This document shows, in pieces, positions 1-20,000 of a stretch of DNA of 20,000 nucleotides. Origin of the DNA: Psammoneis japonica (lineage: Eukaryota); contig QPGO01000197.1 of assembly GCA_008632985.1 (NCBI GenBank), forward strand, positions 115,713-135,712. Reading direction: 5' to 3'. Both the position numbers and the translations under genes were made by a program. The notes beneath the pieces are model-generated. The model saw nothing but the letters and a program-made list of their open reading frames with translations. It was not told the origin of the DNA and ran no database searches. The stretch's first letter is position 1. Every line of letters starts with the position of its first letter.

Positions 1-482
1 ATGCGGCATGCGAGCGCATGCATCAAACTGTTGGAAGTGTCTTGCGCACTTTGCTTCATGTTTGTCCTCCACAGAATGTTGAGCAGGCCAATCAACTGGT
101 GGACAATGCATTGGCAACCGCCATGCATGCAATGCGATGTGCGGTTTCTCGTGCTCTCAAGATTTCACCCGGTGCTGTGGTTTTTCAACGTGATGTGATT
201 CTCGACTTGCCGGTCCCAGCCGATCTTGCCGCCATTCAAGAACACCGACAAGCGATCATCAATGCGAATCTCCGTCGAGCCAACGCTAAACGCCGATCCC
301 ACGATTTTCAAGTTGGCGGACAAGTTCTGCTCAAGGCCATCGACCCAACCAAGCTCGAGCCACGAGCTCACGGTCCACATCCTGTCGTTCAAGTGCATGC
401 TGACGGTGCGCTTGCGGTCCAACGTGCACCTCATGTGACAGAACGATTGAACACACGTCGCGTCGTACCGTGTCACACCTGA
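1..482 (+). mobile_element. Ty3/Gypsy LTR retrotransposon pol C-terminus (end of integrase core plus GPY/F-type module), eroded by TpA mutation
   Basis: Translation reads ..CERMHQTVGSVLRTLL..ATAMHAMRCAVSRALKISPGAVVFQRDVIL..NAKRRSHDFQVGGQVL..KLEPRAHGPHPVVQVHADGALAVQR..ERLNTRRVVPC. This matches the Gypsy integrase tail (ERxHQT..L, SPG.lVF.RDM, KL.PR..GPY.I..VH.NGT..I, ER.NIRR..P). 5' part lies outside the window. Confidence 0.9.
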
Positions 483-582
483 GGTCAAGGGTTTTCTCCC
501 CAACATTTGGGTTTCCCTTCTATCCTCATCCATTGGAATTTAAATTTTTTGAGTCCCGCATGATTCTCGACACTCGAGTCAT

Positions 583-594
583 GGAAGGGAAGAG
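583..594 (+). other. Polypurine tract (PPT) of the Gypsy element
   Basis: GGAAGGGAAGAG, about 100 bp after the pol stop and immediately followed by TG. Confidence 0.75.
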
Positions 595-722
595 TGCAGT
601 GTCTCGCACCTTATTTTTCTGACACACAGCATTAATGAACCTGTTAGATATAACGGAAGCCGTTGTAACGGGCTTCGCTGAAAGCGACCCTCGTTACCTC
701 GGTCTTTCGCTCACAATTTTGT

Positions 723-746
723 NNNNNNNNNNNNNNNNNNNNNNNN
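723..746. other. Assembly gap (N run)
   Basis: Run of N. Confidence 1.
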
Positions 747-777
747 ATAAGTAATCATAAGTCATCATAAGTCATCA
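747..777 (+). repeat. Short tandem repeat, about 3 x ATAAGT(A/C)ATC
   Basis: ataagtaatc ataagtcatc ataagtcatc a. Confidence 0.8.
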
Positions 778-1064
778 ACAGCCCTCACGACTCAAAACAT
801 AGAAAGGCACATGAATAAATAATGCATAAACAGTATTATGTTCTTCGCCAAACAAGACTAAATTTAACGGATAACCGTTAAAAACTACATAACACCATTG
901 ACAAAAATTTCCGTTGTGTTCATATAAATATACATAACTCATAAAAATTCGCGGACGGTGCTGTGTTGTTGCGTGCATCGCACAAACCATCCTCATGATG
1001 TTACCAACAGACATACACCGCCAACATTTCTGCTCTTCAAGATAGGAACTAGTCGTTGTTTACT

Positions 1065-2295
1065 ATGAGGATTTCAACTGTGTGTGCTGTTACAAGTCTT
1101 GTTGTTGCCCTGAGTGCTGCTGTTGAAGGAACCTTTTATCCTGCAAACAACATAGAGAATTTCAGTTTTGCAGGCCGGTGGCAACAGCTTGAGGATGATG
1201 GTGTTGTCAGGTCGGACTGGCCGTGCAGCAGAGTGCAATTCAACATAAACATGACTGCAGAAGATGGCGTCATTACCCTCCGAGTAAAACTTCATCGGGT
1301 GCGGCTCAACGCAGTCGTCACCAACGCAGTCACCGGCGAACTGGAGCAAACAACGATTCTGAAAGGTAATTCGTTTCGGCAGAGAAGGATAAATACGGCA
1401 TTCGAATTGAAGCACCGGAATGCACACCGTCACACTGACAAAATTGACACAAGCGGCACCCTATGGCAATGGTTTGGGCAAGTCAGCCACGTCGGTGCTT
1501 GAATTCTATGGAGTAGAAATGGATGACGATGTCGCGACTCTTTCGCTTCCACCAAAACTGCCGGTACACCGGATTGGTTTTATTGGTGCCAGTGATACGG
1601 CAGGCTTTTGTGTGGATGGTACTCCGCAAGCATGTGACCATCTCGTTCGACCCTGGAAATACAACAATTGCGACTCTGCATATCCTGGCGTCTTGGGAAA
1701 ACGTTTGAATGCCGAGGTGAGCGTCCAAGCCATATCAGGCATTGGACTGACGCAGAATGCGTTTGCGAATTTGCCAGTGGCGCTTGGTGAAAAAACAATA
1801 CAGGATTATTACAACCGAACCCTTCAGACAGAGACGCTGCCTTTTTGGGACTTTGAAGAGTGGCGACCACACCTTGTGATTGTTTCTCTTGGTGGAAATG
1901 ATTATAACCACCAAGAGGAGGTACCTTCCAACGAGACTTTTGTTCAAGCATATCAAAAGTTTCTTTTACAGATTGCCGAACCATATACAAACGATGAAAT
2001 TCCAACAATTGTGAGTATATGTGGGCAAGGGGACCCGACGGAACTGAGCCGAGATCCAAACAATGATCGTTGTCGGCCTTGTCCGTACATACAATACGCG
2101 GTCGAATCCTTTCAGACTATGCATGGTGCAACCATTCCGACCGAATACATTTTTGTTCCATGCGACGGCACGGTTGTGTCGGGAGATGGTGATATTGGTT
2201 GTGACGGCCACAAGAACCGGCTTGGTCAAGAGCGGGTGGCTGACTTTTTGGAACCAAAGCTTCGTGAAATCATGGGCTGGCCCAACAGCCAATAA
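1065..2295 (+). CDS. Secreted carbohydrate esterase family 2-like (CE2) SGNH/GDSL hydrolase, split by two apparent 1-bp deletions at about 1380 and 1412
   Basis: Signal peptide MRISTVCAVTSLVVALSAAVEG; CE2 N-terminal module (FSFAGRW..SDWPCSRVQF); SGNH blocks RIGFIGASDTAG (Ser nucleophile), AISGIGL, SLGGNDY and GCDGH. ORFs 1056-1502 and 1420-2295 join if the extra C and G seen in the paralogue (about 4279 and 4311) are restored. Confidence 0.85.
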
Positions 2296-2812
2296 GTTCG
2301 ACAGAGCCGATGGCTACATCAACGAGCGGAGGTGTTGCGATGACTGTCGTAGCCTACCCATGTAGTGCACGGCAGCATTTTGGCATTATCGGAAGTTAAC
2401 TTGCTGCAAAGGGCGACGTATTATTTCAGCTTCTTCCTTCAGACTTAGTGAGCTCTTGTGTGATGAGAACTTTCCTCTCTCTTCTGCACCGGTGTAGTCT
2501 CGAGATTATGAGCTGTAGCTACACAGATGTGACTTTTCAATCGCTTTGGGCTCCTAAGTGTCAGCTAAGTCGCAAAGCGTCAACCGCTTATTTTGCCATA
2601 AGAATCTTTGGTGAAAGACATAAGACAGCGTCGTGCGCAACAGAGTCACTCTTGCCGTGAGTAGGTTCAACACACGTCGTATTGGATAGTTTACAGGTTT
2701 TAGCTGTTATAATAGACAATGTCTAATGTGCAATACACTGACGTTTCGTTACGCACTGGCATATTTTGGAATGGTGTGAACGTGCTGCGATTTTCCGCCA
2801 ACAAAAGTCGGA

Positions 2813-3604
2813 TCAAGTCAAGAAGCCAGCATCCACCAATCCCTTGATTTTTTTACACTCGACCTTGTGATTTCTCTTCCATGCAGCACGTTGGCATTCT
2901 TTGGAACAAAATTGGGCGATTTTGCAGGCGGAGCACTTTTTCATGACTCTTGCAGAAACCACCTTTTGACAGCCCGGACAATACGCCTTGCGCCCATCCA
3001 AGCAATGGCAATCAATGCGGCGAGCGAGAAACGGAACCACATCATCGCCGCAGTCAATGCGAGCAACCTCTCTGTAGCGATATTTCAAGGCGTCCGTTTC
3101 AGAGGAAAACTTCGGCTGACTGCCCGTCTCTTCTTCCGCAAGTTTTTCAATCACCACGCATACTGCGTCAACAACGGAGCCCTCTCCGGAGGCAACTGGG
3201 GGTCACCGTCCACCAGGGCGTCAACCGCCGTGGAAAAAAGAAAGCACGCAAAATCTTTTGTAATCGGAATTTGATCCTTACAAGCATTCACGGCATCTAC
3301 GGCGGGGCTTAGTTGGGTGTTGTTCCAACTAATTCGCACAAGCCTCGTTCAATTTTGACATTGACATTGAGTAGGACATGAATTTACTTTTGTTGCCTTG
3401 ATGGTTGTAACAGTGATAGCACGGTTCACCATTCGGTTTGTTTGCCTTGTGGATACAAAACGGGTTGTTGCACGGACAAGCCGCGGGTGCTGGTCTCTTT
3501 TCCGCAACGCAGCCTCTGCACAACCGTTTTCCCCACTTTGTTAAGTTCAAAGGCAGTAAAGTCCGCCGAACCAGCTCTTCTTGACAACGGTAGCAGGTCG
3601 GCAT
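2813..3604 (-). CDS. MYND-type zinc-finger protein, frameshifted near 3158 and 3335
   Basis: C-terminal CPGCQK..KKCSACKIAQFCSKECQRAAWKRNHKVEC is a canonical MYND finger, preceded by FLARRIDCHCL. Upstream ORFs 3151-3339 and 3329-3604 (MPTCYRC..CRGC) overlap it in different frames. No clear intron signals. Joining the three ORFs is inference. Confidence 0.7.
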
Positions 3605-4340
3605 GGTGTATGATGATGGTTTTATAATCGTCAATCTGTTTCCACTCTTCTTGATTCTTGATGCAATGCTAGATGCTTAGCTACTGTAGCTATCGAAACT
3701 GAAAACTTCTGTGCGCCGCAAGCCGCAAGGCAGACAACGCCTGCAATGAGGCACAGAATCAAGACCAACACACACCCGAGACACTGACAAGACAATCCCC
3801 GTGGACTGACGTCCGTCCCCCAGCCGTCCCGACGCCCGTCGCAGTTTTGAAGTTCGAAAGTTGTGCACATCGAACAAAAACCATCCCATGGTTATGGTGT
3901 CACTGCCAACAGACAGCACCAACCTTGTTGCTTTTCAAGCTACAGCCGTCGTGTTGCTGTGAGGATTTCAACTGTTTGTGCTGTTGCAAGTCTTGTTGTT
4001 GCCTTGAGCGCTGCTGTTGTTGAAGGAACCTTTTGTCCTGCAACAATGCAGAGAACTTCAGTTTTGCAGGTCACTGGCAACAGCTTGAGGACAATGGTGT
4101 TGTCAGGTTGGACTGGCCATGCAGCAGAGTGCACTTCAACACAAACATGACTGCAGAAGAGATGGCATCCTTGCCCTCCGAGCAAAAATTCATCGGGTGC
4201 AGCTCAGTGCAGTCGTCGCCAACACAGTCACCAGCAAACTGGAGCAAACAACAATTCTGAAAGGAAATTTGTTTCAGCCAGAGAAGGACAAACATGGCAC
4301 TCAAATTGAAGGCACCAGGGTGCACACCGCGGCATTGGCG

Positions 4341-4730
4341 GACGTGCTCCAGCCCCAGGTGGGACTCCGTGTGACATTGGGCCCGTAGAATTCTACGTGC
4401 GAGCTCCGCAGTGCAAGAATTTAATTGATGGATGTGTTTGTTTTCAACATCAAATAGACGGCCAAGTTTGTGGCACAATTGTGCCTCTCACCACTCGACG
4501 TTTTTGCAAATGCGCCTGCCCTGCGCGATTCTCAAGACGTCACAGAATCGCGCTGTGACAAAAAATGTCAAAAGTTTTTGGACGGATCGCTCAATGACTG
4601 CACCGTAAAATGACACAAAATGTCGAAAAAATCACGCAGAAATCTGTGTGCGCGACATGCGACGTGATTAAAAAAACTGTCGACGTCACAGCTCAGCAGT
4701 GCGAGGTCCCACCCAGACCTGGAACGCGTC
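4341..4730. mobile_element. Non-autonomous TIR element (MITE, 390 bp) inserted in CE2 copy 2
   Basis: Absent from the intact gene. Left end GACGTGCTCCAGCCCCAGGTGGGAC versus reverse-complemented right end GACGCGTTCCAGGTCTGGGTGGGAC. GGCG flanks both sides (4337-4340, 4731-4734). Internal 14-bp palindrome CGTAGAATTCTACG at 4384-4397. Confidence 0.85.
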
Positions 4731-5517
4731 GGCGCTGACAAAATTGCTGACACAAAAGCGGTGCACCCTGTGGCAACGGTTTGGGCAAGTCAGCCATGCC
4801 GGTGCTTTAATTCCACGGAGTGGAAATGGATGACGCTGTTGCAACTCTTTCAACTCCACCAACACTGCCAGCATGCTGGGCTGGTTTTGTTGGTGCCAGT
4901 GATGTGGCAGGCTTTTGTGTGGATGGCACTCCGCAAACATGCAGCCATCTTGCTCAACCCTGGAAATGCAACAATTGCAACTCTGCATGTCCTGGCATCT
5001 TGGGAAAACGTTTGAATGCTGAGGTGAGCGTCCAAGCCATTTCAGGCATTGGACTGACGCAGAGTGCGTTTGCAAATTTGCCAGTGGCGCTTGGCAAAAA
5101 AACAATGCAGGGTCATTGCAACCGAACCCTTCAGACCAAGACACTGCCTTTTTGGAACTTTGAGGAGTGGCAACCACACCTTGTGATTGTCTCTCTTGGT
5201 GGAAATGATTGCAACCACCAAGAGGGGGCACCTTCCAATGAGACTTTTGTTCAATCACATCAAGAGTTTCTTGTGCAGATTGCCACAAGCCATTTACAAA
5301 CGATGAATTTTCAACAATTGCGAGCACATGTGGGCAAGGGGACCCGGCGGAACTGAGCCAAGATCCAAACAACAATCATTGTCAACCTTGTCCACATGCA
5401 CAAGATGTTGTCAAATCCTTTCAGATTGCGCATGGTGCAACCATTCTGACCGAACACATTTTTGTTCCATGCAACGGCCCGGTTGTGATGGGAGTTGGTG
5501 ACATTGGTTGTGACAGC

Positions 5518-5908
5518 CACAAGAACCGGCTTGGTCAAGAGCGGGTGGCTGACTTTTTAGAACCAAAGCTTTGTGAAATCATGGACTGGCCAAACAGCAA
5601 ATGCGTTTGACAGAGCCGATGGTTGCACCAACAAATGGAGTTGTTGACACAAGAACCAGCTTGGTCAAGAGCGGGTGGCTGACTTTTTAGAACCAAAGCT
5701 TTGTGAAATCATGGACTGGCCCAACAGCTGACATGCGTTCGACAGAGATGATGGCTGCACCAATGAATGGAGTTGTTGACACAAGAACCAGCTTGGCCAA
5801 GAAAGGGTGGCTGACTTTTTAGAACCAAAGCTTTGTGAAATCATGGACTGGCCTGACAGCTGATGCGTTCGACAGAGCCGATGGTTGCACCAACAAATGG
5901 AGTTGTTG
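5518..5908 (+). repeat. Tandem triplication of an approximately 130-bp unit (CE2 C-terminus plus start of the 3' UTR)
   Basis: AAGAACC(G/A)GCTTGG..GACTTTTTAGAACCAAAGCTTTGTGAAATCATGGACTGGC recurs at 5521, 5651 and 5783. Confidence 0.95.
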
Positions 5909-6382
5909 TGATGACTGCCAGACAACTGCGGACATTGTTGTCTGCTCATGTGGTGCCATGTGCAACATTGCAACTTTGTCAGAAGTTAACTTGCTGTAGA
6001 AAGTGACTTTGGTTTTAGTTTCCTCTTGCATTGGTGAGCTTTTGGATGATGAGAACTTGCCTCTCTCTCTGCTGCACCAGGCAATCTTAAGACCAGGTGC
6101 TGTTGCCACACGTGCATCTCTTGAGGAGAGAGAAAGAGATTGTTCTAAGTCAGAGTGATTGTGGCTGATGCGTGCAAAGCTGCCATGTGTTTGGAAGTTG
6201 TGGTGTCTCTCATGAATCAGGCTGGAGGTGTTGGCATCCTTTTGCACTGCCAGGAATCCCACTGCACCAGTCTCATTTTCAAGCAAGAATCTTCCACACC
6301 AGTGCTCATGTCCCAAGTTTCTCAGATGCGGAAGATTGGAGACCAACAGGAAATGAAGTGGTCTGTGCTTCCCCCTGCATGA

Positions 6383-6424
6383 GTGTGTGTGTGTGTGGTG
6401 GTGTGTGTGTGGGGGGGGGGGGGG
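6383..6424 (+). repeat. (GT)n microsatellite followed by a poly-G run
   Basis: gtgtgtgtgtgtgtggtggtgtgtgtgt followed by a G homopolymer. Confidence 0.8.
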
Positions 6425-8177
6425 TGCTGTGCGTTGCTGCTTCTGAGGTGCTTTGTGCATTGCAGAAGCAGCACTCATGGCTGCGAGCACCTGACAAGCC
6501 ACGGCAACCTCACTCTTTTCTTTCACCAATGTTGCACTGCATGTTTGACGAGTTGAGAGTGAGTTTTTGCTTGCAGCCCACACCACCCACCCATTGTGGC
6601 TCTCTGGCAAGAGCTCCAGTTCTGGGTTCCTTGAGTTGCAAGCTCTGGCTTGAGGTCTGGTGCCAGTGGCTTGCACCACAACCAACCAGAGTGCTCAAAA
6701 TCAGGATCATCAGCCAACAGTGAAGAGCAGAGTCAGAGAATGACAGAGGTCAATTGACCAGCAATTGCTGAAGAATCAGCTGGTTGGCCATTGAGCAAGT
6801 CAAAATGACAAGGAATTCAAAGACTCAGGTTGCACCTGGCACTGGCAAAGCTGGTGCTGGAAGCAAAACAAGAGCAGTGGTGCTGGGTGCTTGCTGAGGA
6901 AGCAGCACATGCTCCAGCCACACACGAGCTTTTGTTGTGATCTCAGGACAGCCAGCAATGCTGAGCTGGGAGGATTGCCTCAGTGAATGGTTGTGATTTC
7001 CAAGTGCATGTGCTCATGATTGGTGTGCCACACAAACAGCACCCAGTTGCTTGTGCACTCTGTGGGAGCATCTTTGCTGCAGTTGTGCCTGCTGTGCAAT
7101 CTTTGCAAGTTTTTCACATTTTTGATCTTTTCAACTCTGCTGAAATTTTTTGCCAACAGACAGCACACCACCGACCAGGGAGGTTTCCACAGAGAGAACG
7201 TTTGATGTGCGGCTGCTGCAGCGCACCTTGGATCCTGTTGCATCATGGCATTTGTTGATTCCGCTGCTGGCGCGGCCGTGCTTGCTGGGGCAAGAGCTGG
7301 TGGTGGTGGTGGTGGTGGGGTGGAGGTTGAGAGTTCAAATCTGAGGCTCTGTCAAAAAAGCAATTGTGGCTTGTGAGGCAAAAGAAGAGCTGCCGCCGAG
7401 TGCTTCGCCAGCCTGGAGCCACTGTTGCTCTGTGTTTTGCACTGGTCACTGGCTGCCATCAAATGGCCAATGGAGTTGTGTGGTTCTGTTGCATTGGGGC
7501 CGGGAGACACAGAAATGGATTGCAGTTGAGTCACATGAAGAGCTGCGGGGGCGGTGAAAAAAGACAGAGCTGGAGCATGGGATTCAGATGGGATTGAACA
7601 CAACCAGGCCTGCGGGGAGCATTGACCACTTGTCTTTCTTTGTGGGTGTGGGTGCATGTGTGCCGTTGCATGCTGCATTGCCTGTACGTGCACAGGGCCC
7701 TGCCGTCGGGGCCGGCATTGTGGTGGCTGAGTGGCGTGGCCACCGCACCGGTGACGCGGATGACCGTCACATTTGATGTCTCATGCCATTTTTGGGGCTG
7801 CAGCGAGGTGCACGGACACTCTTTTTTTTCCAATTTATCGCCACAACAGCACATCGCACAAACTCACTTGTTGTTTGATGTGTTTTCCCCAGTCTGACTT
7901 TTTCATGTAGAATTCACGACAAATTGTCTTTGTGTGCAACTGAACACATTTTTGAACATGCCACGCCGGCAATCCCAATTTTTCAGAACTTTTGAGCTCT
8001 CCTGAAAAACCGTGCCATGCACCAGTCGCAGGGAATTTGCCGATTTTTTAGGATGTCCCCACAACCTCTCATGTCCTCAATGACAATTCCAAGAATCCGA
8101 AGAATTCATCTGCACTGAACAACCCATGCCCTTTCAAAATCCAAGGGACACACTTTCAAATTCAGACGGACAAACCG

Positions 8178-8207
8178 ACTGCCCCACTGCCCCACTGCCC
8201 CACTGCC
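8178..8207 (+). repeat. 8-bp tandem repeat (ACTGCCCC) x3 plus a partial unit
   Basis: actgcccc actgcccc actgcccc actgcc. Confidence 0.85.
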
Positions 8208-8489
8208 GGACCGACACGAAAAAGTCTGCAATCACCAACCACTGAGTGGTCAATGATTTGTTCTTCTGCTCACGCATGTCATGCTTCGAGCAGTCATGCA
8301 ATCTGTCCGTCGGTCTGTGCGTGAAGCCAAAAAATGACAAAAGAAAACAAACAATGAAAGAAGGCTCTGCGTGCGTTGCAGGTTGCAGCAGTGAAGCATC
8401 CAGCATTGCTGCGATCGCTGCATGCTGCGTCTCTTCATCCTCCCCACCTTGCCATCATCTTGAGTGCCACTTTTGACAACAAGCCTTCC

Positions 8490-9272
8490 ATGACTTCCTT
8501 TGACCAACTCGACAAGGGTGTTCAGCGTGGGCTGCAAGTCCTTGCAACACAGCATCGGCATGCTGTCGTTCAAGCAGTTCTCAAGAAAGAAGATGACTTT
8601 GGCAGGACAGAAAGTCATGAACTGTACAAAGGCTGTGCGCAAATCATGAAGGAAGAGAATTTGTCCCCTGCTGCATTTCTGGCTCGCTCTTTTGACATGA
8701 AGGTGCTGACGGGTCACGCTGAGTGGCTGGAAGCACCCTGTGACAAAAACAACGACACCGTGACCGACTTGTGCACATGCTTGGAACAAGCGTGGCTCAA
8801 CCGAGAATTTCCGAACAAATCAATTCCGATGTGTGACAATGCCAATCATGAGGAAATTGAAGGGAGGAAGAAGAAGCTCGAGCGCGAGGCCCGTGAGAAT
8901 TCGTCGTTCGAGAAGAATGATCCAACAGAAATGACCAAGCCACACTGCCGGTTCTTCATCTGCCTTGCACATGAAGAAAAGGACAACAACCAACCTCCTG
9001 AAAACTTCTATGAAATGGCAGAAGAGGCGGCTCAAGCTTTCTGGGAATTGATGTTTGGAACCTGTGGGCATGCCAATTGCCACTTGGATTGCCCCGGTTG
9101 GCTTGCAAACAAATTCTTCATCTCTGCTGAAGTTGAACTTGAAAACATGGAAACCACTGGTGTTCCGGAAACTGCAGAACTGATTGATCAAGAAATCTCA
9201 ATGAAAGGGGTGTTCAGATTGGATGCGGGTGATGTTGGAAAGAGTTACGTTGAAATCACTCGTGTGGAATGA
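8490..9272 (+). pseudogene. TpA-eroded gene of unknown function (260 aa, frame still open)
   Basis: Protein-like, charged and helical composition (MTSFDQLDKGVQRGL..SPAAFLARSFDMKVL..AWLNREF..EEAAQAFWELMFG). Only 3 Tyr, with Cys/His at plausible Tyr positions. Lies within the TpA-depleted domain. Could still be expressed. Confidence 0.55.
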
Positions 9273-9483
9273 ACGCCTGGTGTGGCACATGGCTCTTGCA
9301 TTGAGGTTCACAGTGCCACTTGATTGCCAGGGGACAGCTCGGGGAACACATTCCACATCTTGTGAATGGTCGTGCGGTGGCAGAGACACGTTCACATCAC
9401 CGTGACAAATGTTGCTTTGCATTCTAATGACCAACGACAAAGGCTGCAACACAACTCAAACCATTGTGCAGAACTGCAGCCAT

Positions 9484-9940
9484 TGCAGTGTGCATGCAGA
9501 CAAAAGGTTGTTTTTGTCATGCCCTTTGTGACATTTAAAGGCTGCAACACGTCGCTGTGATGCATTGGCTCTTGTTGGCAGCTGTGTGTTGCACTCCTCC
9601 CCATGTGTCACGCGTCCATGCGGCTCTTTACTGACATGTGCTGACACTGCACGGTTTTGGCAGAACAGTGTGGGTGCGTGCGAAGGAACATGCAGAACTG
9701 CACAGAGTTTTTACGCGTTCGACAGTGATCAACGTTGCTGCAGACAACTCCCACTCAGGGTTTCGAACCCCTGGCCTCCTGCCTGATGGTTGCGATGAAC
9801 TGCTGCATTGTGAACTCACAATGCAGTGTGCATGCAGACAAAGGTCATTTTTGTCATGCCCTTTGTGACATTTAAAGGCTGTAACACGTCGCCGTGACAC
9901 ATTAGCTCTTGTCAGCAGCTGCACACTGCACTGTCCCATT
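9484..9940 (+). repeat. Pair of approximately 120-bp direct repeats (9484-9605 and 9822-9940)
   Basis: TGCAGTGTGCATGCAGACAAA..TTTTTGTCATGCCCTTTGTGACATTTAAAGGCTG(C/T)AACACGTCGC occurs twice, 338 bp apart. Confidence 0.9.
9747..9815 (-). pseudogene. Possible tRNA-derived remnant (B-box/T-arm)
   Basis: Minus strand reads ..GCAGGAGGCCAGGGGTTCGAAACCCTGAGTGGGAG, resembling the 3' half of tRNA-Asp/Glu (GGTTCGA in a CAGGG/CCCTG stem). No intact anticodon arm. Confidence 0.35.
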
Positions 9941-10515
9941 GTTGCCGTTGCATCTCTCTAGACTGCAAATTTCAGTTTGTCGTGTTCGCAAGCAGCTGCA
10001 GTGTTGCACTCATCTTGCAAACTTTCCTTCCTTCTGATTGTTCCGTCCTTCTCTTGCTTGAGATGGTCCCTGCCACGCATGCCGGCAGAAGTCAGTCACC
10101 CGATCTGGGGGGGAAGCATTTTGGTTTTAGGCGGGCGGGCTCATCGCGCCCTTGCCCAGTCATGATGTCACGATCACGATCACGTCCATCCATCTGTCTC
10201 ATCAACGCAGACGGGAAATTGACCGTGCTTCCACCAAATGGCAAACTGCCAACTGCTGCTCTAGATCAGAGAGGGTCATCACCAGAGTGCAGCCACAAAA
10301 AAAGATGAAATTGGTGCCTGGAGATGCTGGTCCATGGGCATTCTTGTGGCGCACTGAGAGCAAAGCTTTTCTGCATTTTGTGCACAAACCATCCCCTCTT
10401 GAGCCCAAGCATCTCGGCATGGGGTCATTCACCACAGCATGGGCACATCATTCCTCTTTTGTCACTGCCAATTGGGAGGACTTTTGCTCCTTTGTTGCAC
10501 CTCATGTAACAGCAT

Positions 10516-10945
10516 CTTTCTGGAAAACTTGGAAGAGCAACAGCAGCTCTGCACCTTGTGATTGTCTCTGTTTTCTGTTGGTGCAAACAACCACAGCCAT
10601 CAGGAAAATGTGCTTTCTTTGTTCAAGTGCATCAAGAGTTTCTTCTGGACATTGTCAAGCCACATGCACATCATGCAACTCCAGCGCTGTGAGTGCATGT
10701 GGGTGAAGGGACCCCCGACCGAGGTGAGCCAAGACCCAAACAATGGTCATTTTCAGCCTTGTCAAAAATCCTTCTAGATTGGCGTTCATGGCACAACAAC
10801 TCCATTGGAACACATTTTTGTTCCATGTGATGGCACAGTGATCTCAAGGGAGATGACAATGTTGGTTGTGATGGCCAAGAGCGGGTGGCTGACTTTTTGG
10901 AGTCAAAGCTTTGTTGAGAAGTCATGGGCTGGCCCAGCAGCCAAT
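10516..10945 (+). pseudogene. Third, more decayed fragment of the CE2 gene (3' part)
   Basis: Matches about 1851-2293: CACCTTGTGATTGT, TTTGTTCAAG..CATCAAGAGTTTCTT, GAGCCAAGACCCAAACAATG, GAACACATTTTTGTTCCATGTGATGGCAC, CAAGAGCGGGTGGCTGACTTTTTGG, CATGGGCTGGCCCAGCAGCCAAT. Confidence 0.9.
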
Positions 10946-11330
10946 TTTGAGCACAAAAAGCAATTGGCATTGATGACTTTTGAGGAAAAAGCAGCTGAGA
11001 CTGGTTGGCAAATCCAAGTGTTGTTTGAGCCCACAAATGCTTTTTGACTCTCTGCTTGGCATGTCTTGCTCTTCCTCAAAACTGCGCTCCACACCTCTAA
11101 TGTCTCAGGGGCAAAACAAGCATTTGACAATGGAGAACAAAAGGACAATGCAGCCATTGACAATCAGCAGATTGAAGGATCTCTTCAAAGATCCAAAAAA
11201 CCAAGAGCTTGTTGTCTTGTCAGCTTGTTCTTGCATGACAGGGGGAGGCCTTGGTGGAAGCTGGTGTTTCTCATGTTTTTAATTCGTTTGTGGGACAGGC
11301 CCACATCACAAGCATGATGGCAGACAGACC
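10943..11330 (+). pseudogene. Decayed CHAT (caspase-HetF-like peptidase) domain fragment
   Basis: Read across frameshifts: NFEHKKQL..IQVLFE..ALHxS-(C)xG-QNKHLTMEN..LKDLF..ELVVLSACSCMTG/EALVEAGVSHVF. This matches the CHAT motifs LHFSxHG and LVxLSACxS..G.AF..AGV.HV. Confidence 0.65.
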
Positions 11331-12638
11331 TTCATTTGTGCATTCATCCAATGCATTGAAGCCACCAGCGCTGCATTTGCCTCCTCCTCGGATGTCCACT
11401 TTGGAGTCATCTTTGGAGTTGTGGAGTTGCTGATGCGCTGATCATGGGAGTGGTTGAGCTCCTCTTTGCATTCCCTTGTGCTTCTTCTTTGCATTTGAGA
11501 CACAGGTCTCTGCTCTCTTCTTGATGATGGAGTTTGACTCTTCCTTGTCCTGAGGTTTCTGACTGGGCTTGTTGTGGAAATCACTTCAGCACCCCCAAGT
11601 GCTTCACAGAGCTCTTCACTTTGAAAGAGTGACCCGGTCAAACATTTTGACCATGTCTTGGCCACAAAGCCACCTTCTGGGACAGCAGCATTGTTGAGGT
11701 TTTTGGTTTCAGCAATCATCTTGGATCTGCTCATGGCGGCTGCATCTTTTGTGGCTTGAGTTGGTGCGGGCTCCCCATGCTGACTGACTGACAATGTGCC
11801 GGGTTGGTCATCAACCAGGGACTCCAGCCAATGTTGCATCCACAGCCAAAGTGCCCAACAGAGCTGATGACTGCGCCAACAAACAGGGGCATCACAAAGA
11901 CTGCCAGGCCACTGCGACATTGTTTTGCCTGCCCACTCCTGCGCACAGCGCTGCAGCAGAGTTGTGGCATCAATCAATGAGGAGCATGAGATCCACAAGA
12001 GGGGAGGCAGTGCAAAGCTCGCTCTCCACTCACAAATGTGCGCGAGGTTGGTGAAAAGAAAGAGCGCGCTCGCAGCTTGCTCTGGTGGCTTGCAGCGCCA
12101 ACAGACTCCAAGAAGCAGCTCTCGAACATCGGCAGAGCTTGAGAGCTCCGTTTTGAGCCTCTGCAAAAAAGCAATTGTGGTGTGATGTTCACCCTGCCTG
12201 GAAACTGTTCTCTGGTGCGTTGTCGTGTTTCTCTGCCAAGCCCAACAGCCACGTCGAGTTGCCGCCCTCGTCGTCTGGCCCCCGCTTGCTTTTTCATGGT
12301 GATGCTGGCCTGGCCGGAGGGAAGTTTCGCAAGTTGAAGTTCCCATGCGATCTTTCTTGCGTGAGTTTGAAAATCTGAAGCGCAACAACATGCGTTTCTC
12401 CGGCTGGCAGCCTCCATGGCAGGGCAGCTGCAATGACATCCAATGGCACTGCCCAAGTCACAAAAATGGCCCCTGCTGTGGGTTGGGCAATAGGACAATG
12501 CTCGCATAATGCGACGACAAATTTTGTAATGACCTTGAGAAAAATTCGAAAAATCCGTTGCTCCTCGCTCCTGGCAGCGCAGCAATGCCGTCAACACGCC
12601 CCATTCACTCTTCATCTCGTTGTAGTAGATTGTAAACC

Positions 12639-13724
12639 ATGCTGTCAAAGAGCCTCAAACATGCTGCTATTACCATTGCTGTAGGGCTTATTACATGGGA
12701 ATTATGTTTTTTACTCAGAGTTCACTCGTCTTCTGCTCTCTCCTCCTCGTCTTATTCGGTCGGACTTCATCAAGCCAATAAGTTTGAAAAGTACAGTGGC
12801 AATTGGAGGTCACGACCGTTGGTGATGGTTTCCAATGGTTGCTCTGGAAGCACGTTCGCAATTGCGTTTGCACGAAAGCTTGTGGAGCGTCACACGGGGT
12901 TGGATCCCACAGTCAGTTTAGCACATGACGAATCCTCTGAATTTCTTAAACACCAAAACAACAAGCTCTTTAAAAGAAAAATGTCAGACCCGGTTTTGGC
13001 AGACAAGGACATGGTCATCGATAGCTACAAGCACGTGATGAGGAATCATTCTCAAGTGTTTGTTCCCAAAGTTCTGGCGCCTCATCTTACACGTGGGGTG
13101 GTAGAAGGACTCAAGCAGCTGAATCCTCGTTATGTCTTGATGTACCGCAGTAATATATTGGAACGGATTATTTGTGACATTCGTGATTGTTTTCTACCAG
13201 AATCAAATCACCAATCTGTGTTTGAGAACGGTACTCGTTCCGATTTTTGTTATGAGCGACGAGAGCACCCTGAAGTCAAAACTCTGGCTCTTGTCAACAA
13301 GAAAAACTTTGAAGAGGTGGTGGCAAGAGACATGAAAACGTGGGGCTGTGAAGAAGCTTTGAAACGTCCGTCTTTAAAGTTGAGATTGGACCAGGCAATG
13401 GATTTTGACAATAAAAAGGAAAACTACCCTCGCGTGGAAAAGGAACTTCTCGAAGCCTTTCAATACGTGCCAGAAAAGTCGGTCGAATTCCAACAGAGTG
13501 TTGACGAATGGAAGACGTTGCTACTGAGCTGGGATATCGAACCGCAAGAATCCATAATTGTGGATGAAATGCGCAGTAAAGGTATTGATAAGCGGAATCA
13601 CAAGAGCGTCTTGAAAAATGTTTACAACACGGATTTGATTGAATCTCTATTTCAATACTGGGCAAAGACCCCCCACTACTGTGACTGGCGATGGATGATG
13701 CATGAGCGTCGAGAGAAGCCATGA
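12639..13724 (+). CDS. Type II membrane sulfotransferase-like protein (P-loop fold, Stf0-like motifs)
   Basis: 361-aa intact ORF with normal Tyr and TpA content. N-terminal anchor AAITIAVGLITWELCFLL; 5'-PSB-like VMVSNGCSGST; 3'-PB-like YVLMYRSNILERIIC. The CDS is confident; the function is inferred. Confidence 0.7.
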   Translation: MLSKSLKHAAITIAVGLITWELCFLLRVHSSSALSSSSYSVGLHQANKFEKYSGNWRSRPLVMVSNGCSGSTFAIAFARKLVERHTGLDPTVSLAHDESSEFLKHQNNKLFKRKMSDPVLADKDMVIDSYKHVMRNHSQVFVPKVLAPHLTRGVVEGLKQLNPRYVLMYRSNILERIICDIRDCFLPESNHQSVFENGTRSDFCYERREHPEVKTLALVNKKNFEEVVARDMKTWGCEEALKRPSLKLRLDQAMDFDNKKENYPRVEKELLEAFQYVPEKSVEFQQSVDEWKTLLLSWDIEPQESIIVDEMRSKGIDKRNHKSVLKNVYNTDLIESLFQYWAKTPHYCDWRWMMHERREKP

Positions 13725-13979: not shown

Positions 13980-16900
13980 TTACCTTTTGCTTTTGCGGAT
14001 GCGCAGCGAGCCAAGAAATGAACGTTTCGGCTTTGCCCCTTCACTCGTATGCTTAGCCTTGTGGCCTTGATTTCCGTCAGATCTCGGTTTCTTCAACATT
14101 CGTGCAACCCGTCCTTTGCTCGCCTTGTCTTCACAACAAAACAAGGCCATTTTGCAAGAGACACCTTTTAATTCCTTTGCACATACAAACTCCACCGACA
14201 CTTCGGAGTCCATGGTTGGAGGTGGTGGCATCTCTGCTGACTCGACAACTGGCACTCCCACAAACACCTTGCCCGCATCCGTGGCAGCCGCAACCCGAGC
14301 GGCACGGTTCACTACAGGACCGACATAATCGGCACGACCGGTCAATGGATGCGGGGCCATTCCTGAAAAGGCACCAGAATGAATACCAACTCGGATAAGA
14401 TTGGTGGTATCAACTTCATCGTCAAAGGGTGCGTTACCAACCGCCGTCATGAGCATGAGCCCAAACTTGACAGCCGGATCCAACGATTCGAATGCAATCA
14501 CCCATTTGCCTTATTCGTCGAAACAAGAAATTTGTTAGTTCATTTCCAAAGAACCCATCGGCATGTATCGACTGCCTATTTACCTTTGTCTTCTTGGCAT
14601 TCGTAGCCCGGCGGCGACACTTGCAACAGTAGAGACCTGACCACTTTTGTCAAGATCGAGAATGTCCGCTGCGCCAAGTCATCAGCAAAGTCATCTGTCC
14701 CCGATGGATAAACAAACATCATTGTAGCGGTTCCACTCTTATCCGGTGCATCCAAGAACGATGTAGTAAGTCTGCGGGTAGTGTCAGCCTGCGGGGAACC
14801 TCCGTCCTCTTGCCGGCACAAGAGAAGCGTGGCTAGTACTACCGGTCGCATTGAAGTAATCATAGGCCAATTCCTTAGGAACCAACTGTACGACACCCTT
14901 TGCAATGATACCTTCGTCCATAAATTCACCAGTCATGAGCACATACTCTCCATAATCAACTACTTGAGGAGTTCCCAACTGCTCACTCAGTTCAGAAACA
15001 ACCCGCCAAGTTTCGGCAGTTGCCAGTATCTGTCCACCAAAACACAGAGCCTCGATGCTTTTTGCCAACCGAAACGTCTTTCCGGAATACGATGCACGAC
15101 CACTAACTTCGTTGATCTGAGGCGTCGCACTGCCATGGTGGATACCCATCCGGACACGAAGGCCACGAAAGCGTCCCTCTTCATCGATGCCTGCATCAGC
15201 CAAGGCTAGAATACTATCCGACCAATCTGCCTTGTACAACTCCATTTGAGCCTCGAGAGCAAATCCAATGGCATCCACGGGATCATGAAAGGCCAAGTGA
15301 AACGCGTCGCCTTCAGTTTTGATTTCGTAGCCACTATGGGCGGAAATGCACTTTCGGAGGATTTTGTCATGCAAGCCCAACGCCTCCTTCATGGCATCAG
15401 CGTCAGCCTCCCAAAGAGAGGTCGAGCCTTGAATGTCGGTAAGAACAATCGTGACCTCACCAGACGGGGCATCGCGCTTGCTCTCTCGCAACGACATGGT
15501 ACTAGTGAGGTGCTTGAGGAGCTTACGTTCTTCGACAAGCTCGTCCATAATTCGACGGTGCTCCCAATTTTCAATGGTTTGCGCCATGAGGAGAGCCATT
15601 CGTTCAAGCTCTAATTCGTGGTCCTTGGTGAAATCGTGCCTCGGAACTGTGTCCAACATGCAAAGCACAGCTACGACGTACCCATCGGAAGTGATTATAG
15701 GAGTTCCAACGTAAGAACGCATGGGACTACCAGTGTAGCAGCTCATAAATGCCTCATCCTTCCACAAATCGGGGACAACAAACGTGCCTCGTTTCATAAT
15801 TGTATAGTTGCAGGCGGTGGTGCCGCGTCCATAAGCAACGCAAAAGGGGGCGCCTTCGCTGTCGGAGCAAATCGTCTCTCCAGCTTGAATAACACCAACA
15901 CCGCCGTCCTGAATACCAAGGGCGAGCTGATTCGAGTGGTTATGGATTGTGATGGCAACAACTGGAAACCGAAATAGAGACGCAGTCCTGCCGACCAATC
16001 CCTTTAACTGCTTCGCCATGGGCGAGTCGGGATCCATCTTGTGCAATCCCAATGCCTCTACCCTGGATACACGGGCCATGTCGTCTCTTCCCACGGGTGG
16101 CGGAGGCATACCAGCCTTAGCAGCCTCTTCGAAAACCGAGGAAGGAATGTGTTGCCGTTCCAACTCTGACGCTCGATACCGGTTTGCCACAAACGGCAAC
16201 AAGCTTGAGTTCGAAGTCGGGCCATCATCAACATGTGGTGGTACGTTCTGCTCAGACTTGGACGACTTGGGGCCATCATCAACTTGTGGTGGTACGTTTT
16301 GCTCCGACTTGGATGACTTTTCTTCTTCTTCTTTAGACTTGAGATCCATGTATTCTTTCCTGGCGTTCGCAACTTGTTCTGTAAGTGACTTGTTGCGATC
16401 TTGCAATTGTTTTCGTAGACGGAGTTGCTGCTCCGTCATGGCAGCAATCTCGGCGGACAAGAGTCGCAAGGACTCCTCTTCACGTTGACTCTCTTCATAG
16501 GTATCTGTGGTAATCTGGCATACTACTCCTAGTCTCGACCCGTCATCGTTCTTGATGACGTGACCCACATAGGTTGACCCAATGGAACGAAAGTCCTCGA
16601 TTGTCACCTCACGAATGACAAAATCTTTGGACTTGTCCAACACCAACTGAGAGCAGAAACTTTGATTATGATCCACAACTGTTCCTCGATCCATAGGTAT
16701 GAGTTCACCGTTGGGTCCACGCAGATTTCCACAGAGCACGTGCTGACCATCTAATCGACACAGGTGTACGCCGGCATAATTGGCGCTGGAATTGGATCCC
16801 ATAAGTTGTCTCGCAAGTCCATCAAACTCCTGAATCTCTGAAATGGGAGTATACGCGGTCAAGTCATACTCTTCTGCGGCCAAAAAATCAGGCACATCTT

Positions 16901-17270
16901 GATTAGGAGGGATGCTTGATTCTGTTGACACCTTTTCTTCTTGTTTACAATCATCCGTGTTGTTCGTCTCGACCACAGGTGTCGTCGGAGCAGACTTGTC
17001 CGTTTTCTCTTGATCCAACAAGGATGACTCCAATGCTCGCGCAATCACTTTTCGATGAATTTTGGACGAAATCTCCAACTCGTCCAGCATCTCTTCGAGT
17101 TCGCTCGCATCATCTCCAAGGGAACTCAAGAGACCGCCGTCAATCCCGGAATCGCGAATCGAGGCAGCATACTCTTTATACTTTGGACCACCCAACGAGA
17201 CTACGGAATCAGCCACATCGTCCTTGGTCCACTGCTCCAAAGGACGACTCTTCGATTCAGAGTTGCCCAT
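13980..17270 (-). CDS. Class III nucleotide cyclase: SAM + two GAF + two tandem cyclase homology domains; one intron (14510-14583) and one apparent frameshift (about 14795)
   Basis: Start MGNSESK. SAM: LEQWTKDDVADSV..YAASIRDSGIDGGLL. GAF1: SFCSQLV..YVGHVIKNDDGSRLGVVC. GAF2: TACNYTI..VVPDL..RSYVGTPIITSDGYVVAVLCMLD. CHD1: VTIVLTDIQGSTSLWE..EIKTEGDAF..LRVRMGIHHG. CHD2: GYECQEDKG/KWVIAF..IRVGIHSG..ADYVGPVVNRAARV. Confidence 0.9.
14510..14583 (-). other. Spliceosomal intron (74 bp) in the cyclase gene
   Basis: Minus strand AAAG|GTAAAT...CTAAC...TAAG|GC. Splicing joins ECQEDK-G-KWVIAF in frame. Confidence 0.85.
16219..16318 (-). repeat. In-frame 51-bp (17-aa) tandem duplication in the cyclase linker
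   Basis: KSSKSEQNVPPQVDDGP KSSKSEQNVPPHVDDGP. Confidence 0.9.
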
Positions 17271-18386
17271 GTTGTCGCTGTTGTATGAAACAATATTTGA
17301 AAAGTGAACCCGTTCTTCTGATTTCGCAAGATCCAGATCGCAAATCAAATCTTAGGTCTCGCGTTCTCTCTTTTGAGAGTACTGTAGCTACTGCATAGGC
17401 CTACAGTAGAGCTATCGTGTATCGCATGGGCGGCGGGCGGTGCGGCGTACCGTACAGTAGAGTTCTTCTCTGTCATGTCGTTGACAACTTCAACTTGTAA
17501 CGGCGAAAAAGAACGTTGTCACCAACAAAACTCAAAAACTGACATCATGAATGACGGGTAGGGCCCTAAGTAGAAAAAATCAAGTAGCTTTTTTACTAAA
17601 AGTCAGCTGGATTTCTACTGGCAATCTTGGTGCAGTCTGCACATCACCCCTAAAAATGGAAAAAGCACAAAGAACCTGTCATGCATGGAGGCCATTTGGC
17701 GCGACAGGAGCTCGTTTTCTGACTGACAAGCAGTTTTCAGGCAAGTGGAAGTAGATTGAGTAGATTTCGAGCTGTTTAGAAAAAAAAAAATCATGATGTC
17801 GGCAGTTGATTTTTTTGGCGACACTTGTCTTGGCCAAACATTTCTCGCCCCTGTGCAAGGGCTGCCGTGGGATGCATGTGGCTGTGGTGTGTGATGACAT
17901 CATCACACTCGTTGAGCTGAGCATGCACACAGCTTTGCCAGCATGCACATGTCATCAAGGTGGCATGAGATGAAAATTGTGAAAATCATTTCTGCGTGCA
18001 TTTTCTGTGAAAATCATGGGAGTCAAAGATTCGTTGTCGCAAAAAAGCGCTGTGTGTGTTTTCAGCAAACAACATGGTCAGCATGCGAGCAACAGCAAGA
18101 GCATCACTCAATGGAAACTCTGGATTGCTCATTTGCATGAAAGGCACTTCCAAGATGAAAACACTTGTGAGCTGAAAGCTGAAGCATGTGGGCACATTCT
18201 CTGCGCTGTCTCGGCCACCTCTGACAAATGTGAAAGAAGCCGCAGCTTTCGACACTTTTTCCCACTCAAGCAGCCAATTCAAAAATTTGGGGCAAAAAAC
18301 ATGACCTTTTTTGCCAACTGCAATGTCATGTTGATTGAATCTTGAAATGCGCAGCTTCTTTTCATGGACAAGTCAAGAACACACCA

Positions 18387-18648
18387 GGCCTGTTCCAGCT
18401 CCAGGTGATGCGCACAGGCTCGATTCCCATCACTGGCCCATTTTTGCATTCAGTGCAACAAACTCCTTAAAAATCAGGTTTTTTTCAAATCGAAGGGTGA
18501 GTGCACACAAAACTCATGCATTTTGTGTGCACTCACCTTTCGATTTTCGAAACGATCAAATTTGAAGGAGTTCTTTGATGCGCTGAACTGCACAAAGAAT
18601 TGGCCTCTTGCGTGATGGATTTCTCATCCCCTGGGGCTGGAACAGGCC
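18387..18648. mobile_element. MITE (262 bp) with 24-bp TIRs, 4-bp TSD and a central hairpin
   Basis: Left end GGCCTGTTCCAGCTCCAGGTGATG versus reverse-complemented right end GGCCTGTTCCAGCCCCAGGGGATG (22/24). ACCA flanks both sides (18383-18386, 18649-18652). Inverted repeat at 18487-18546. Confidence 0.85.
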
Positions 18649-18812
18649 ACCAATGAAGAATGCAGGACACTTGTTTGAAAGGAAACACAGCATTCAATGG
18701 CATCCTGGGAGAGGCCAAACTGAGGCCATCATTTTGTGTGGAAACATGCAGAAATCACACCGGAAAAATGTCCCAACAAATTTTGCCTTTTGCCATCATG
18801 GACCAGTGAAAA

Positions 18813-18849
18813 NNNNNNNNNNNNNNNNNNNNNNNNNNNNNNNNNNNNN
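18813..18849. other. Assembly gap (N run)
   Basis: Run of N. Confidence 1.
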
Positions 18850-20000
18850 CATCAAAGTGCTCAAGATGACACATCATCTTGAACCAATGCAAGGGCCTTT
18901 TTCATCAATTCTGTGGATGAAGGCTCCACTTTTTTGAACACATCATCTGTGACATCAATGTCATGGAATGACCAAGATGGCAATGAATTTCCTTTTGTTT
19001 TAAATGTGCCACCAAAAGGTGAAAGAAGTCAAGAAGCTGCCACACGGAGGACCCAAAGAGCTTGCACAGGGAAACTCAAGTCATGGTTTTTGATGGAAAT
19101 GATGATGGCAATGATGTGATTTTGGATTGATCTTTCGACTCTCTTCCCTTTGAGACTTGGAAAAGTTTGTCACATCAGATTTGGGGGCAAACGGCATTGA
19201 AGCCACCCAGGCAAGAAGTGAAAAACATCTTTGCTGCTTTCGCCAAAGACATCAACCATGAAACAGATCAAGATGTTCTTTTTCTGCTTCTCTCTGATTC
19301 AATGGATTGTGAGCTGCCCCCTTGTGATTGCAGCTCAAAAAATGTTGCCAGGAGACCTGCCACCTGCTAGAATCAAAAGCAAAATCAGGTTGAAGCTGTC
19401 AGCTCACTGGTGCTCTCCATGCCAAGCCCCTTTGCAACCATTTTACAAACACCACAATCACTCATGGACTCCTTCATGCCTTTGAATTTTCTGTGACAAG
19501 CTGTGCTTGCAACTGGAGACTTTAACTTTGAACGCTGTGCTCACAAATTCTGTGCAACAAGTGCAAATCATTTGTGTCTTTCCCAATGCTGTGCCTCAAT
19601 GCCAAAGCTTTGTCACTGTGCAATCAAAACCAAAATCAGATGCAAGCACAATCATTTCCCCAGTTGTCCAGAATCTGTGCTAAGATGCCACCGACAACAC
19701 CATCTTTGCAGCTGAAGCTGTCAGCAATGTTTCAGGCAGAGCACTGCAGGATGCTGCGCGTGACGAGCATTCAAGCACTTTCCTCACTTTTGCCCAAGAC
19801 TTGAAAGGTTGAACACTGCTGGACTCCTCGTTGATCTGCACTCAAACAAGACCACTTCAAAAGGATCTCCATGTCAAAACCAATGCCTTTGCACCTGACT
19901 TTGTCGCAGGCTTGTTGCTGTCCTCCAGATGTGCAACAGACTCAGAGTTTTTCCAATTATTGAAGCGGCACTCCCTCTTGTTCACTGTGGTTGTTGCTTT

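Follow-up and report, generated by a model that had tools for sequence, protein, structure and literature searches.

Hypermutation directed at cytosine is an established form of defence against selfish DNA (RIP, APOBEC), whereas an adenine- or TpA-directed counterpart acting on resident DNA is known from one experimental report. Mettrop et al. (April 2026, bioRxiv 10.64898/2026.01.13.699255) described TpA>TpG/CpA hypermutation in mutation-accumulation lines of Bigelowiella natans. According to the available parts of that preprint, 231 of 302 nuclear single-nucleotide mutations fell in two integrated viral regions, where the rate was ~6e-7 per site per generation; 230 of these 231 were A>G or T>C, and the GC-ward changes were all on TpA. 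The same parts report 324 low-TpA coding sequences enriched in reverse transcriptase and DDE domains, propose adenine deamination and name an ADAT2-like candidate in B. natans (bioRxiv 10.64898/2026.01.13.699255). Its main text, in the portion available, mentions neither a 3' base preference nor decoupling from CpG decay nor diatoms. A literature search on TpA hypermutation covering diatoms, algae, transposable elements, RIP and TpA depletion returned only this preprint for such a process. In diatoms, an RID-related DNMT4 has been described with its function not known, and the accessible text of that paper holds nothing on TpA (PMC9998398).

The locus described here belongs to a 20,000-nt stretch of DNA that was analysed as a whole and is called the window below. 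With the accessible account of B. natans it shares changes that consist almost entirely of A>G/T>C, are restricted to TpA, hit either strand and lie in discrete regions, as well as long-term TpA depletion with CpA and TpG enrichment and low-TpA coding sequences of the reverse transcriptase and DDE kind. It differs in that the B. natans account concerns de novo mutation in single-copy NCLDV and virophage insertions with many TpA left (Rho 0.45), whereas the window holds a near-complete fossil record in an LTR retrotransposon and duplicated host genes. Two features of the window, its preference for a pyrimidine 3' of the TpA and the separation of TpA loss from CpG decay, go beyond the B. natans text as available.

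RIP of ascomycete fungi likewise riddles repeats, transposons and duplicated genes with context-dependent transitions and leaves blocks of skewed dinucleotide content. However, RIP changes C:G to T:A, mostly CpA to TpA, creating TpA and lowering GC, while in the window TpA is destroyed and GC is unchanged; RIP also mutates both duplicates, whereas one duplicate in the window, copy A of a CE2 gene, was spared. Deamination decay of 5-methylcytosine yields TG and CA, as seen here, and is present in other TA-poor blocks of the window (CpG observed/expected, o/e, down to 0.09), but it cannot remove TpA and is absent from positions 1–482. Finally, ADAR and APOBEC3 of animals are deaminases that drive context-dependent hypermutation against retroelements, ADAR with a preference for 5' U. 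Their substrates are RNA or the single-stranded cDNA of one strand, in contrast to the window, where both strands of resident DNA are altered and erosion extends to sequence never retrotranscribed.

The end of a pol gene and its dinucleotide composition

Positions 1–482 contain two TpA, at 287 and 466, whereas 25.5 would follow from base composition (o/e 0.08), and each of 20,000 mononucleotide shuffles of this segment retained at least 12. Even with a TA o/e like that of ordinary genes in the window (0.56), 14.3 would be expected (Poisson P(<=2) = 7.6e-5). TG (45, o/e 1.61) and CA (49, o/e 1.54) are both in excess, and CpG is present 39 times (o/e 1.12). GC is 0.54, and the GC content of the erased blocks is unchanged. 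A sequence-only reading had described TpA as scarce and CpG as abundant in this segment, and the counts confirm both. Two candidate causes were rejected on composition: decay of methylated CpG, by the undepleted CpG of 1–482, and fungal RIP, by direction, as the TA o/e and GC of this segment are opposite to the TpA excess and AT enrichment that RIP leaves. The features at this end of the window are as follows.

1–520, no strand assigned: TpA-erased block with 2 TA, TG and CA excess, and CpG not depleted
3–479, plus strand: last 159 codons of a Ty3/gypsy pol gene, downstream of the integrase core, from the open frame and protein homology
480–482, plus strand: TGA stop codon of pol, coinciding with the C-termini of homologs
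480–722, plus strand: probable start of the 3' LTR, placed by repeat depth and contig joints and cut by an N gap at 723–746

In a search among longer proteins, the 159-residue frame matched 88 Pol proteins (best E 5.7e-63, 70–71% identity). These carry PF00078, PF17917/PF17919, PF17921 and PF00665, which we take to be, in this order, reverse transcriptase, RNase H, integrase zinc-finger and rve domains, in agreement with the earlier call of a gypsy integrase. The only named sources among the matches are Cyclotella species, at ~50% identity. Pfam gave nothing above threshold for the 159 residues and, below threshold, DUF7232 only, so the family assignment comes from the protein search. In 81 of the 88 proteins the alignment reaches within 9 residues of the C-terminus of the homolog, which indicates that 3–479 is the very end of a Ty3/gypsy pol gene and that its stop is native. 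The integrase catalytic core (rve, DDE) of this copy lies upstream of the window start.

The encoded protein is eroded. It has no Tyr, compared to 2.3% in homologs, and it departs from the consensus at 4 of the 41 columns that are at least 95% conserved, where homologs depart at a mean of 0.54 and a maximum of 3. Judged from these comparisons, 3–479 appears to be part of a decayed, dead copy of a high-copy Ty3/gypsy LTR retrotransposon of a eukaryotic alga. The closest relatives, P0001 and P0003 (69–70% identity), also have TA-loss-type replacements at conserved sites: P0003 reads GPH, NVRR and PH, and P0001 reads PH. Both may come from a related genome in which these copies are partly eroded.

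Repetition is higher from ~480 onward than in the pol part. Summed contig depth is 700–3000 in the pol bins; from 476 on, it is 3000–7000 in five of ten bins and 880–2600 in the other five, and four contig joints end at 480. The LTR-like part at 480–722 is also much less eroded than the adjoining coding part. Positions 483–722 keep 9 TA (o/e 0.52) with no TG/CA excess, which was counted against a hypermutation reading. Polymorphism of TA, CA and TG among other copies occurs in the LTR-like part too (627, 630, 643 and 666). As for paired LTRs and a target-site duplication, the N gap truncates the probable 3' LTR and the 5' one falls beyond the window.

Direction of the change

The query was aligned with 85 Pol homologs having a match span of >130 residues, three shorter ones of the 88 being dropped. 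The part of the window around the motifs singled out earlier reads GPHPVVQVHADGALAVQRAPHVTERLNTRRVVPC. Among the 85 homologs, the consensus position of GPY is Y in 56, F in 25 and H in 4, RDM has M in 85/85, and NG after the invariant N is found in 85/85. NIRR has I in 82/84, xYD has Y in 46, F in 18 and H in 16 of the 85, and PY has Y in 69/83. The motifs GPY, RDM, NG, NIRR, xYD and PY, which the sequence-only reading had taken as the family consensus, thus match the alignment. The codons cat gct gac ggt gcg ctt gcg, encoding HADGALA, are present at 396–416 as it had reported.

Departures at the most conserved positions, M65V (M in 85/85), N134D (N in 85/85) and I151T (I in 82/84), are each one TA>TG or TA>CA change. 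The same holds for I128V, T136A, T138A, Y100H, Y126H and Y157C, given the neighbouring base. When every possible transition was reverted in turn, TG/CA>TA reversals brought back the majority residue at 11 of 93 sites. The proportion was lower for the remaining A>G-type reversals, 7 of 166 (Fisher p 0.038), and for the remaining C>T-type ones, 2 of 126 (p 0.002). The enrichment over other A>G-type reversals is modest, and CpG-type reversals, restoring 6 of 92, are not different from the TA type (p 0.31); both points were counted against hypermutation. Several departures are of other kinds, namely N12S, an A>G after A, and Y102F and L59V, which are transversions; they too were counted against it.

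The DNA of related elements provides a second comparison. A contig scan found 80 of them in metagenome contigs at 49–56% amino-acid identity. Their homologous ~468 nt hold 9–48 TpA (o/e 0.34–1.13, median 0.84, none below 0.3), with CpG o/e ranging from 0.10 to 1.62. A codon alignment was made with the 73 relatives whose homologous stretch is free of stops, and their TA frequencies at query-aligned positions sum to 26.9. In 27 dinucleotide columns, 30% or more of relatives carry TA; the window keeps TA in none of these columns and reads TG 8 times, CA 5, TC 7, TT 4 and another dinucleotide 3 times. The relatives' TA frequency at the window's TG/CA positions sums to 11.8; with each relative taken as the query in turn, the same sum has a mean of 6.5 and a maximum of 10.7, all below the window's value. 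By these alignments, the element family does not avoid TpA and the copy at 1–482 has lost it.

Other copies of the element were found in contigs of the one sample that contains the window (three coded runs of one study, no RNA among the listed runs). Placed on 1–722 at >=80% likeness, they amount to 201 pieces, with no piece on 1–722 from runs X2 and X3. The sample may be the window's own source, and the contigs show other copies rather than an independent organism. Of 148 variable places on 1–722, 107 vary by transitions. Among the 40 places listed of these 148, TG or CA dinucleotides of the window account for 28, its surviving TA for 2, a CpG for 1 and other sequence for 9; the nine of other kinds were counted against a hypermutation reading. 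The T136 and T138 sites are not among the 40 listed.

At 63/64, 77/78, 176/177, 194/195, 401/402 and 471/472 the window reads TG and other copies read CA or TA, and at 257/258, 300/301, 338/339 and 378/379 the window reads CA and other copies read TG or TA. Position 300/301, for example, is CA in the window, TG in 9 contigs and TA in 1, while 401/402 is TG in the window, CA in 6 contigs and TA in 6. Depth at 378/379 is split about half CA and half TG. At 217, where the window has CA, one contig (depth 737) retains TA, and at 466 it is the window that has retained TA, with CA in 4 contigs. Independent loss of a single ancestral TA would produce just such adjacent-base transitions in opposite copies. 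Twelve contigs have N where the window has D134, and 7 have I where it has T151, so that the consensus of genomic copies is without the window's damaged motifs.

The proposal that HADGALA derives from HTNGTLT through four TG->TA reversals stands except at its first alanine. Ala133 (GCT) is Ala also in three of the ten best homologs (P0003, P0005 and P0009), and 12 same-sample contigs read C at 398, giving CAC GCT. The TG at 398–399 therefore looks like CpG decay rather than a lost TA, and Ala133 is probably ancestral, so A133>T is probably wrong. Relative to other copies, 1–482 has at least two CpG losses, at 398 and 475.

Erased blocks, CE2 gene copies and sequence context

The window contains three TpA-erased blocks, which are sharp-edged and adjoin ordinary genes. 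Across 40 bins, TA o/e and TG/CA o/e are inversely related (Spearman -0.77), and erased 500-nt bins have a TA o/e of 0.00–0.23. The second block includes TA-free runs at 6146–7685 (1539 nt) and 11280–12491 (1211 nt). The features beyond the retrotransposon are listed below.

968–2337, plus strand: CE2/GDSL esterase gene copy A, ordinary TA, frames 1053–1499 and 1411–2292
3860–5646, plus strand: CE2 copy B, decayed, with an in-frame stop, inside the second erased block
~3890–12490, no strand assigned: 8.6-kb TpA-erased block, CpG o/e 0.09–0.87
9462–9942, plus strand: repeat pair 9462–9606 / 9806–9942
10516–10945, plus strand: CE2 copy C fragment, decayed
~17780–20000, no strand assigned: third TpA-erased block, running off the window end

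The CE2 copies allow the change to be followed in a host gene. The two frames of copy A are presumably joined by an intron. The best database identity of its protein is 66–67%, and the Atlas confirms for it the CE2/GDSL family and gives no lineage. Neither this esterase nor the cyclase described below has a near-identical database entry, and the nearest named matches of the window's proteins are from diatoms, bolidophytes, a pelagophyte and haptophytes, which suggests an organism other than B. natans. The alignment of A and B starts ~85 nt upstream of the reading frame, and copy B has a 356-nt insertion near the presumed intron. Of 43 TA in copy A, 18 are TG and 18 are CA in copy B, and 2 are kept; 46 aligned CpG of copy A have likewise become TG or CA in it. 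At 4 of 10 sites where copy A has TA, the outcome differs between copies B and C. The repeat pair differs at 18 bases, including 5 adjacent TG<->CA double differences.

Compared to 51 outgroup proteins, the 67 non-synonymous differences between A and B favor copy A, whose residue is the commoner one at 52, that of copy B at 11, with 4 ties. At every Tyr>Cys/His change in copy B, the Tyr is conserved in outgroups. These residues indicate that the TA-poor copy B is derived. The direction given earlier, that TA was lost, is therefore upheld by four independent lines: by the reversal test, by the DNA of 80 relatives, by same-sample copies and by the CE2 pair with outgroups.

Rates by context were taken from the CE2 pair, copy A standing for the ancestor. 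Among A preceded by T, 35 of 84 (42%) changed to G, compared to 12/212 after A, 14/228 after C and 10/163 after G (pooled 36/603, ~6%), making A>G ~7-fold higher after T. The A>G/T>C transitions are thus concentrated at TpA, as in B. natans. Both strands are hit, with TpG and CpA products and opposite products in different copies. The 3' base also matters: TAC changed at 14/25, TAT at 16/35, TAA at 3/16 and TAG at 2/8, which is 30/60 for TAY against 5/24 for TAR (p 0.016). YTAY became TG in 12 cases and CA in 3, and RTAR became CA in 5 and TG in 2, so that 17 of 22 outcomes lie in the direction predicted by T-A-Y (p 0.017). Among surviving TA, YTAR accounts for 27/48 in erased blocks and 43/312 in ordinary parts (p 6e-10); YTAR is refractory on both strands. 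In the LTR-like part just 3 of the 8 TA counted in 521–722 are in YTAR context, which was counted against hypermutation. The simplest reading is a one-strand motif, 5'-T-A-Y, in which A>G occurs on either DNA strand.

Loss of CpG follows a different pattern. The 22 bins with TA o/e <0.25 have CpG o/e of 0.09–1.08 (median 0.47), and the other 18 bins have 0.56–1.22. TpA loss is almost complete wherever it is present and CpG loss is variable, which marks them as separate processes. The sequence-only reading had suggested that TpA loss can precede CpG decay or be decoupled from it. On decoupling, the range across the 22 TA-poor bins, together with the CpG o/e of 1–482, agrees with that reading. 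It is plausible that TpA loss comes before CpG decay.

Other frames in the window were also noted. Pfam was run on 51 ORFs; inside the TA-poor blocks it recognised the decayed GDSL copy and otherwise gave just one CHAT match, below threshold (E 0.0064, ORF 10977–11279, plus strand). The 383-residue ORF 11309–12457 (minus strand) had no usable match in the Atlas and no recognisable relative. At 5518–5908, the 3' end of copy B is followed by two more tandem copies of a ~130-nt unit, three in total, the unit being the end of the CE2 gene (2209–2337). For a 304-residue frame at 8358–9269 (plus strand), within a TA-poor block, 26 relatives lie at E<=1e-3 (best 6.6e-18). With two exceptions they are shorter than 262 residues, and the 10 scanned have no Pfam family above threshold. 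The frame's parts ~41–190 and ~147–304 match the same kind of protein, and it may be a decayed two-unit gene of an unrecognised family. Between the erased blocks lies an ordinary-looking 362-residue frame without a family (12636–13721, plus strand). Another ordinary-looking frame, of 855 residues, at 14787–17351 (minus strand) has GAF and adenylate/guanylate cyclase domains and three weak matches in the protein collection (32% identity). At 4000–12500 and 17780–20000, long open frames overlap on both strands. As the erased blocks have lost TAA and TAG, TGA is the one stop codon left in them, and gene callers would over-predict there.

Proposed explanation and alternatives

We consider it likely that TpA-specific DNA hypermutation made this pattern. 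The results above show which way the change went, its TpA specificity, its strand symmetry, the independent resolution of one site in different copies, the arrangement in blocks and the T-A-Y preference. The retrotransposon copy would have been struck after insertion by A:T -> G:C hypermutation at the DNA level, only at TpA. A struck A on the top strand would give TA>TG, and one on the bottom strand TA>CA. The target would be discrete silenced or repeated blocks with sharp edges, the neighbouring genes being spared, and the process would be independent of CpG (5mC-type) decay. Strand symmetry, erosion of a host gene upstream of its frame and independent resolution between copies locate the process in resident DNA and rule out editing of retrotransposon RNA. 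The sparing of copy A argues against a symmetric, RIP-like scan, unless selection preserved copy A. Fungal RIP was likewise rejected by its all-copies rule, since copy A keeps its 43 TA and has the outgroup residue at 52 of 67 differences; here too, selection could mask the effect.

The chemistry may be deamination of adenine to hypoxanthine in DNA by a TadA/ADAT2-like enzyme recruited to silenced chromatin. In the natural tRNA target of TadA/ADAT2-like enzymes, U precedes the edited A. A DNA adenine deaminase of this class, by analogy with what has been proposed for B. natans, is the favored, if tentative, candidate that we put somewhat short of even. Thymine chemistry would fit the pattern equally. 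A modified T in silenced DNA, such as 5-hydroxymethyluracil made by a TET/JBP-type oxygenase, could mispair with G when in R-T-A; the resulting T>C would look, on the opposite strand, exactly like A>G at T-A-Y. Older literature has 5-hydroxymethyluracil preferring TpA in dinoflagellate DNA. This alternative is nonetheless improbable, as there is no sign here of such a base or enzyme and the B. natans precedent, in the parts available, favors adenine deamination, by proposal and without a chemical test.

The scarcity of TpA could instead be intrinsic to the family, through selection on RNA stability or codon use or through avoidance of TA-targeting insertions. The window's ordinary genes are already below expectation in TA, and in some copies TA was removed synonymously, as in GAC ATG at 194/195. 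However, the changes destroy invariant residues and the 80 relatives have normal TpA, which together exclude intrinsic composition and UpA selection as the cause. In addition, a decayed CE2 copy with an in-frame stop and erased sequence with no recognised gene are eroded alike, and the same site is TG or CA in different copies. We regard this explanation as very improbable.

ADAR-like A-to-I editing of retrotransposon RNA, with its 5'-U preference and fixation by reverse transcription, would account for A>G after T, which is the ADAR preference according to the accessible part of the B. natans preprint (bioRxiv 10.64898/2026.01.13.699255). It is hardly credible here, as the changes are strand-symmetric both in 1–482 (TG 45, CA 49) and in the CE2 pair (18 and 18), and as duplicated host-gene DNA is equally hit, in an alignment that begins ~85 nt upstream of the frame and has a 356-nt insertion in copy B near the presumed intron. 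To our knowledge, ADARs are restricted to animals. Repeats can exchange sequence, and the contigs and window may share one data set, but GC-biased gene conversion among repeats is excluded by the ~7-fold effect of 5' T on A>G and the unchanged GC of the blocks, and with the dependence on the 3' base and edges that are sharp beside ordinary genes, conversion or a sequencing or assembly artefact deserves next to no credence.

The same TpA hypermutation signature apparently now extends to another algal lineage. New here are the T-A-Y flank rule, which makes the enzyme easier to look for, and the clear distinction between TpA loss and CpG decay. Should the process be general, it would explain long, stop-poor, Tyr-free pseudo-ORFs that confuse gene callers, and it would offer a clock and polarity rule for dating repeats. 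Decayed transposable element families would be recoverable by reading TG and CA as possible former TA, and the process would point to a natural DNA adenine editor. It is conceivable, if on balance doubtful, that a chromatin-targeted T-A-Y DNA adenine deaminase is a RIP-like defence shared by distant SAR algae (chlorarachniophyte and ochrophyte-like), faster than and independent of cytosine methylation. If so, such a defence would act on transposons, integrated viruses and silenced gene duplicates, and would erase TpA and thus Tyr codons and TAA/TAG stops.
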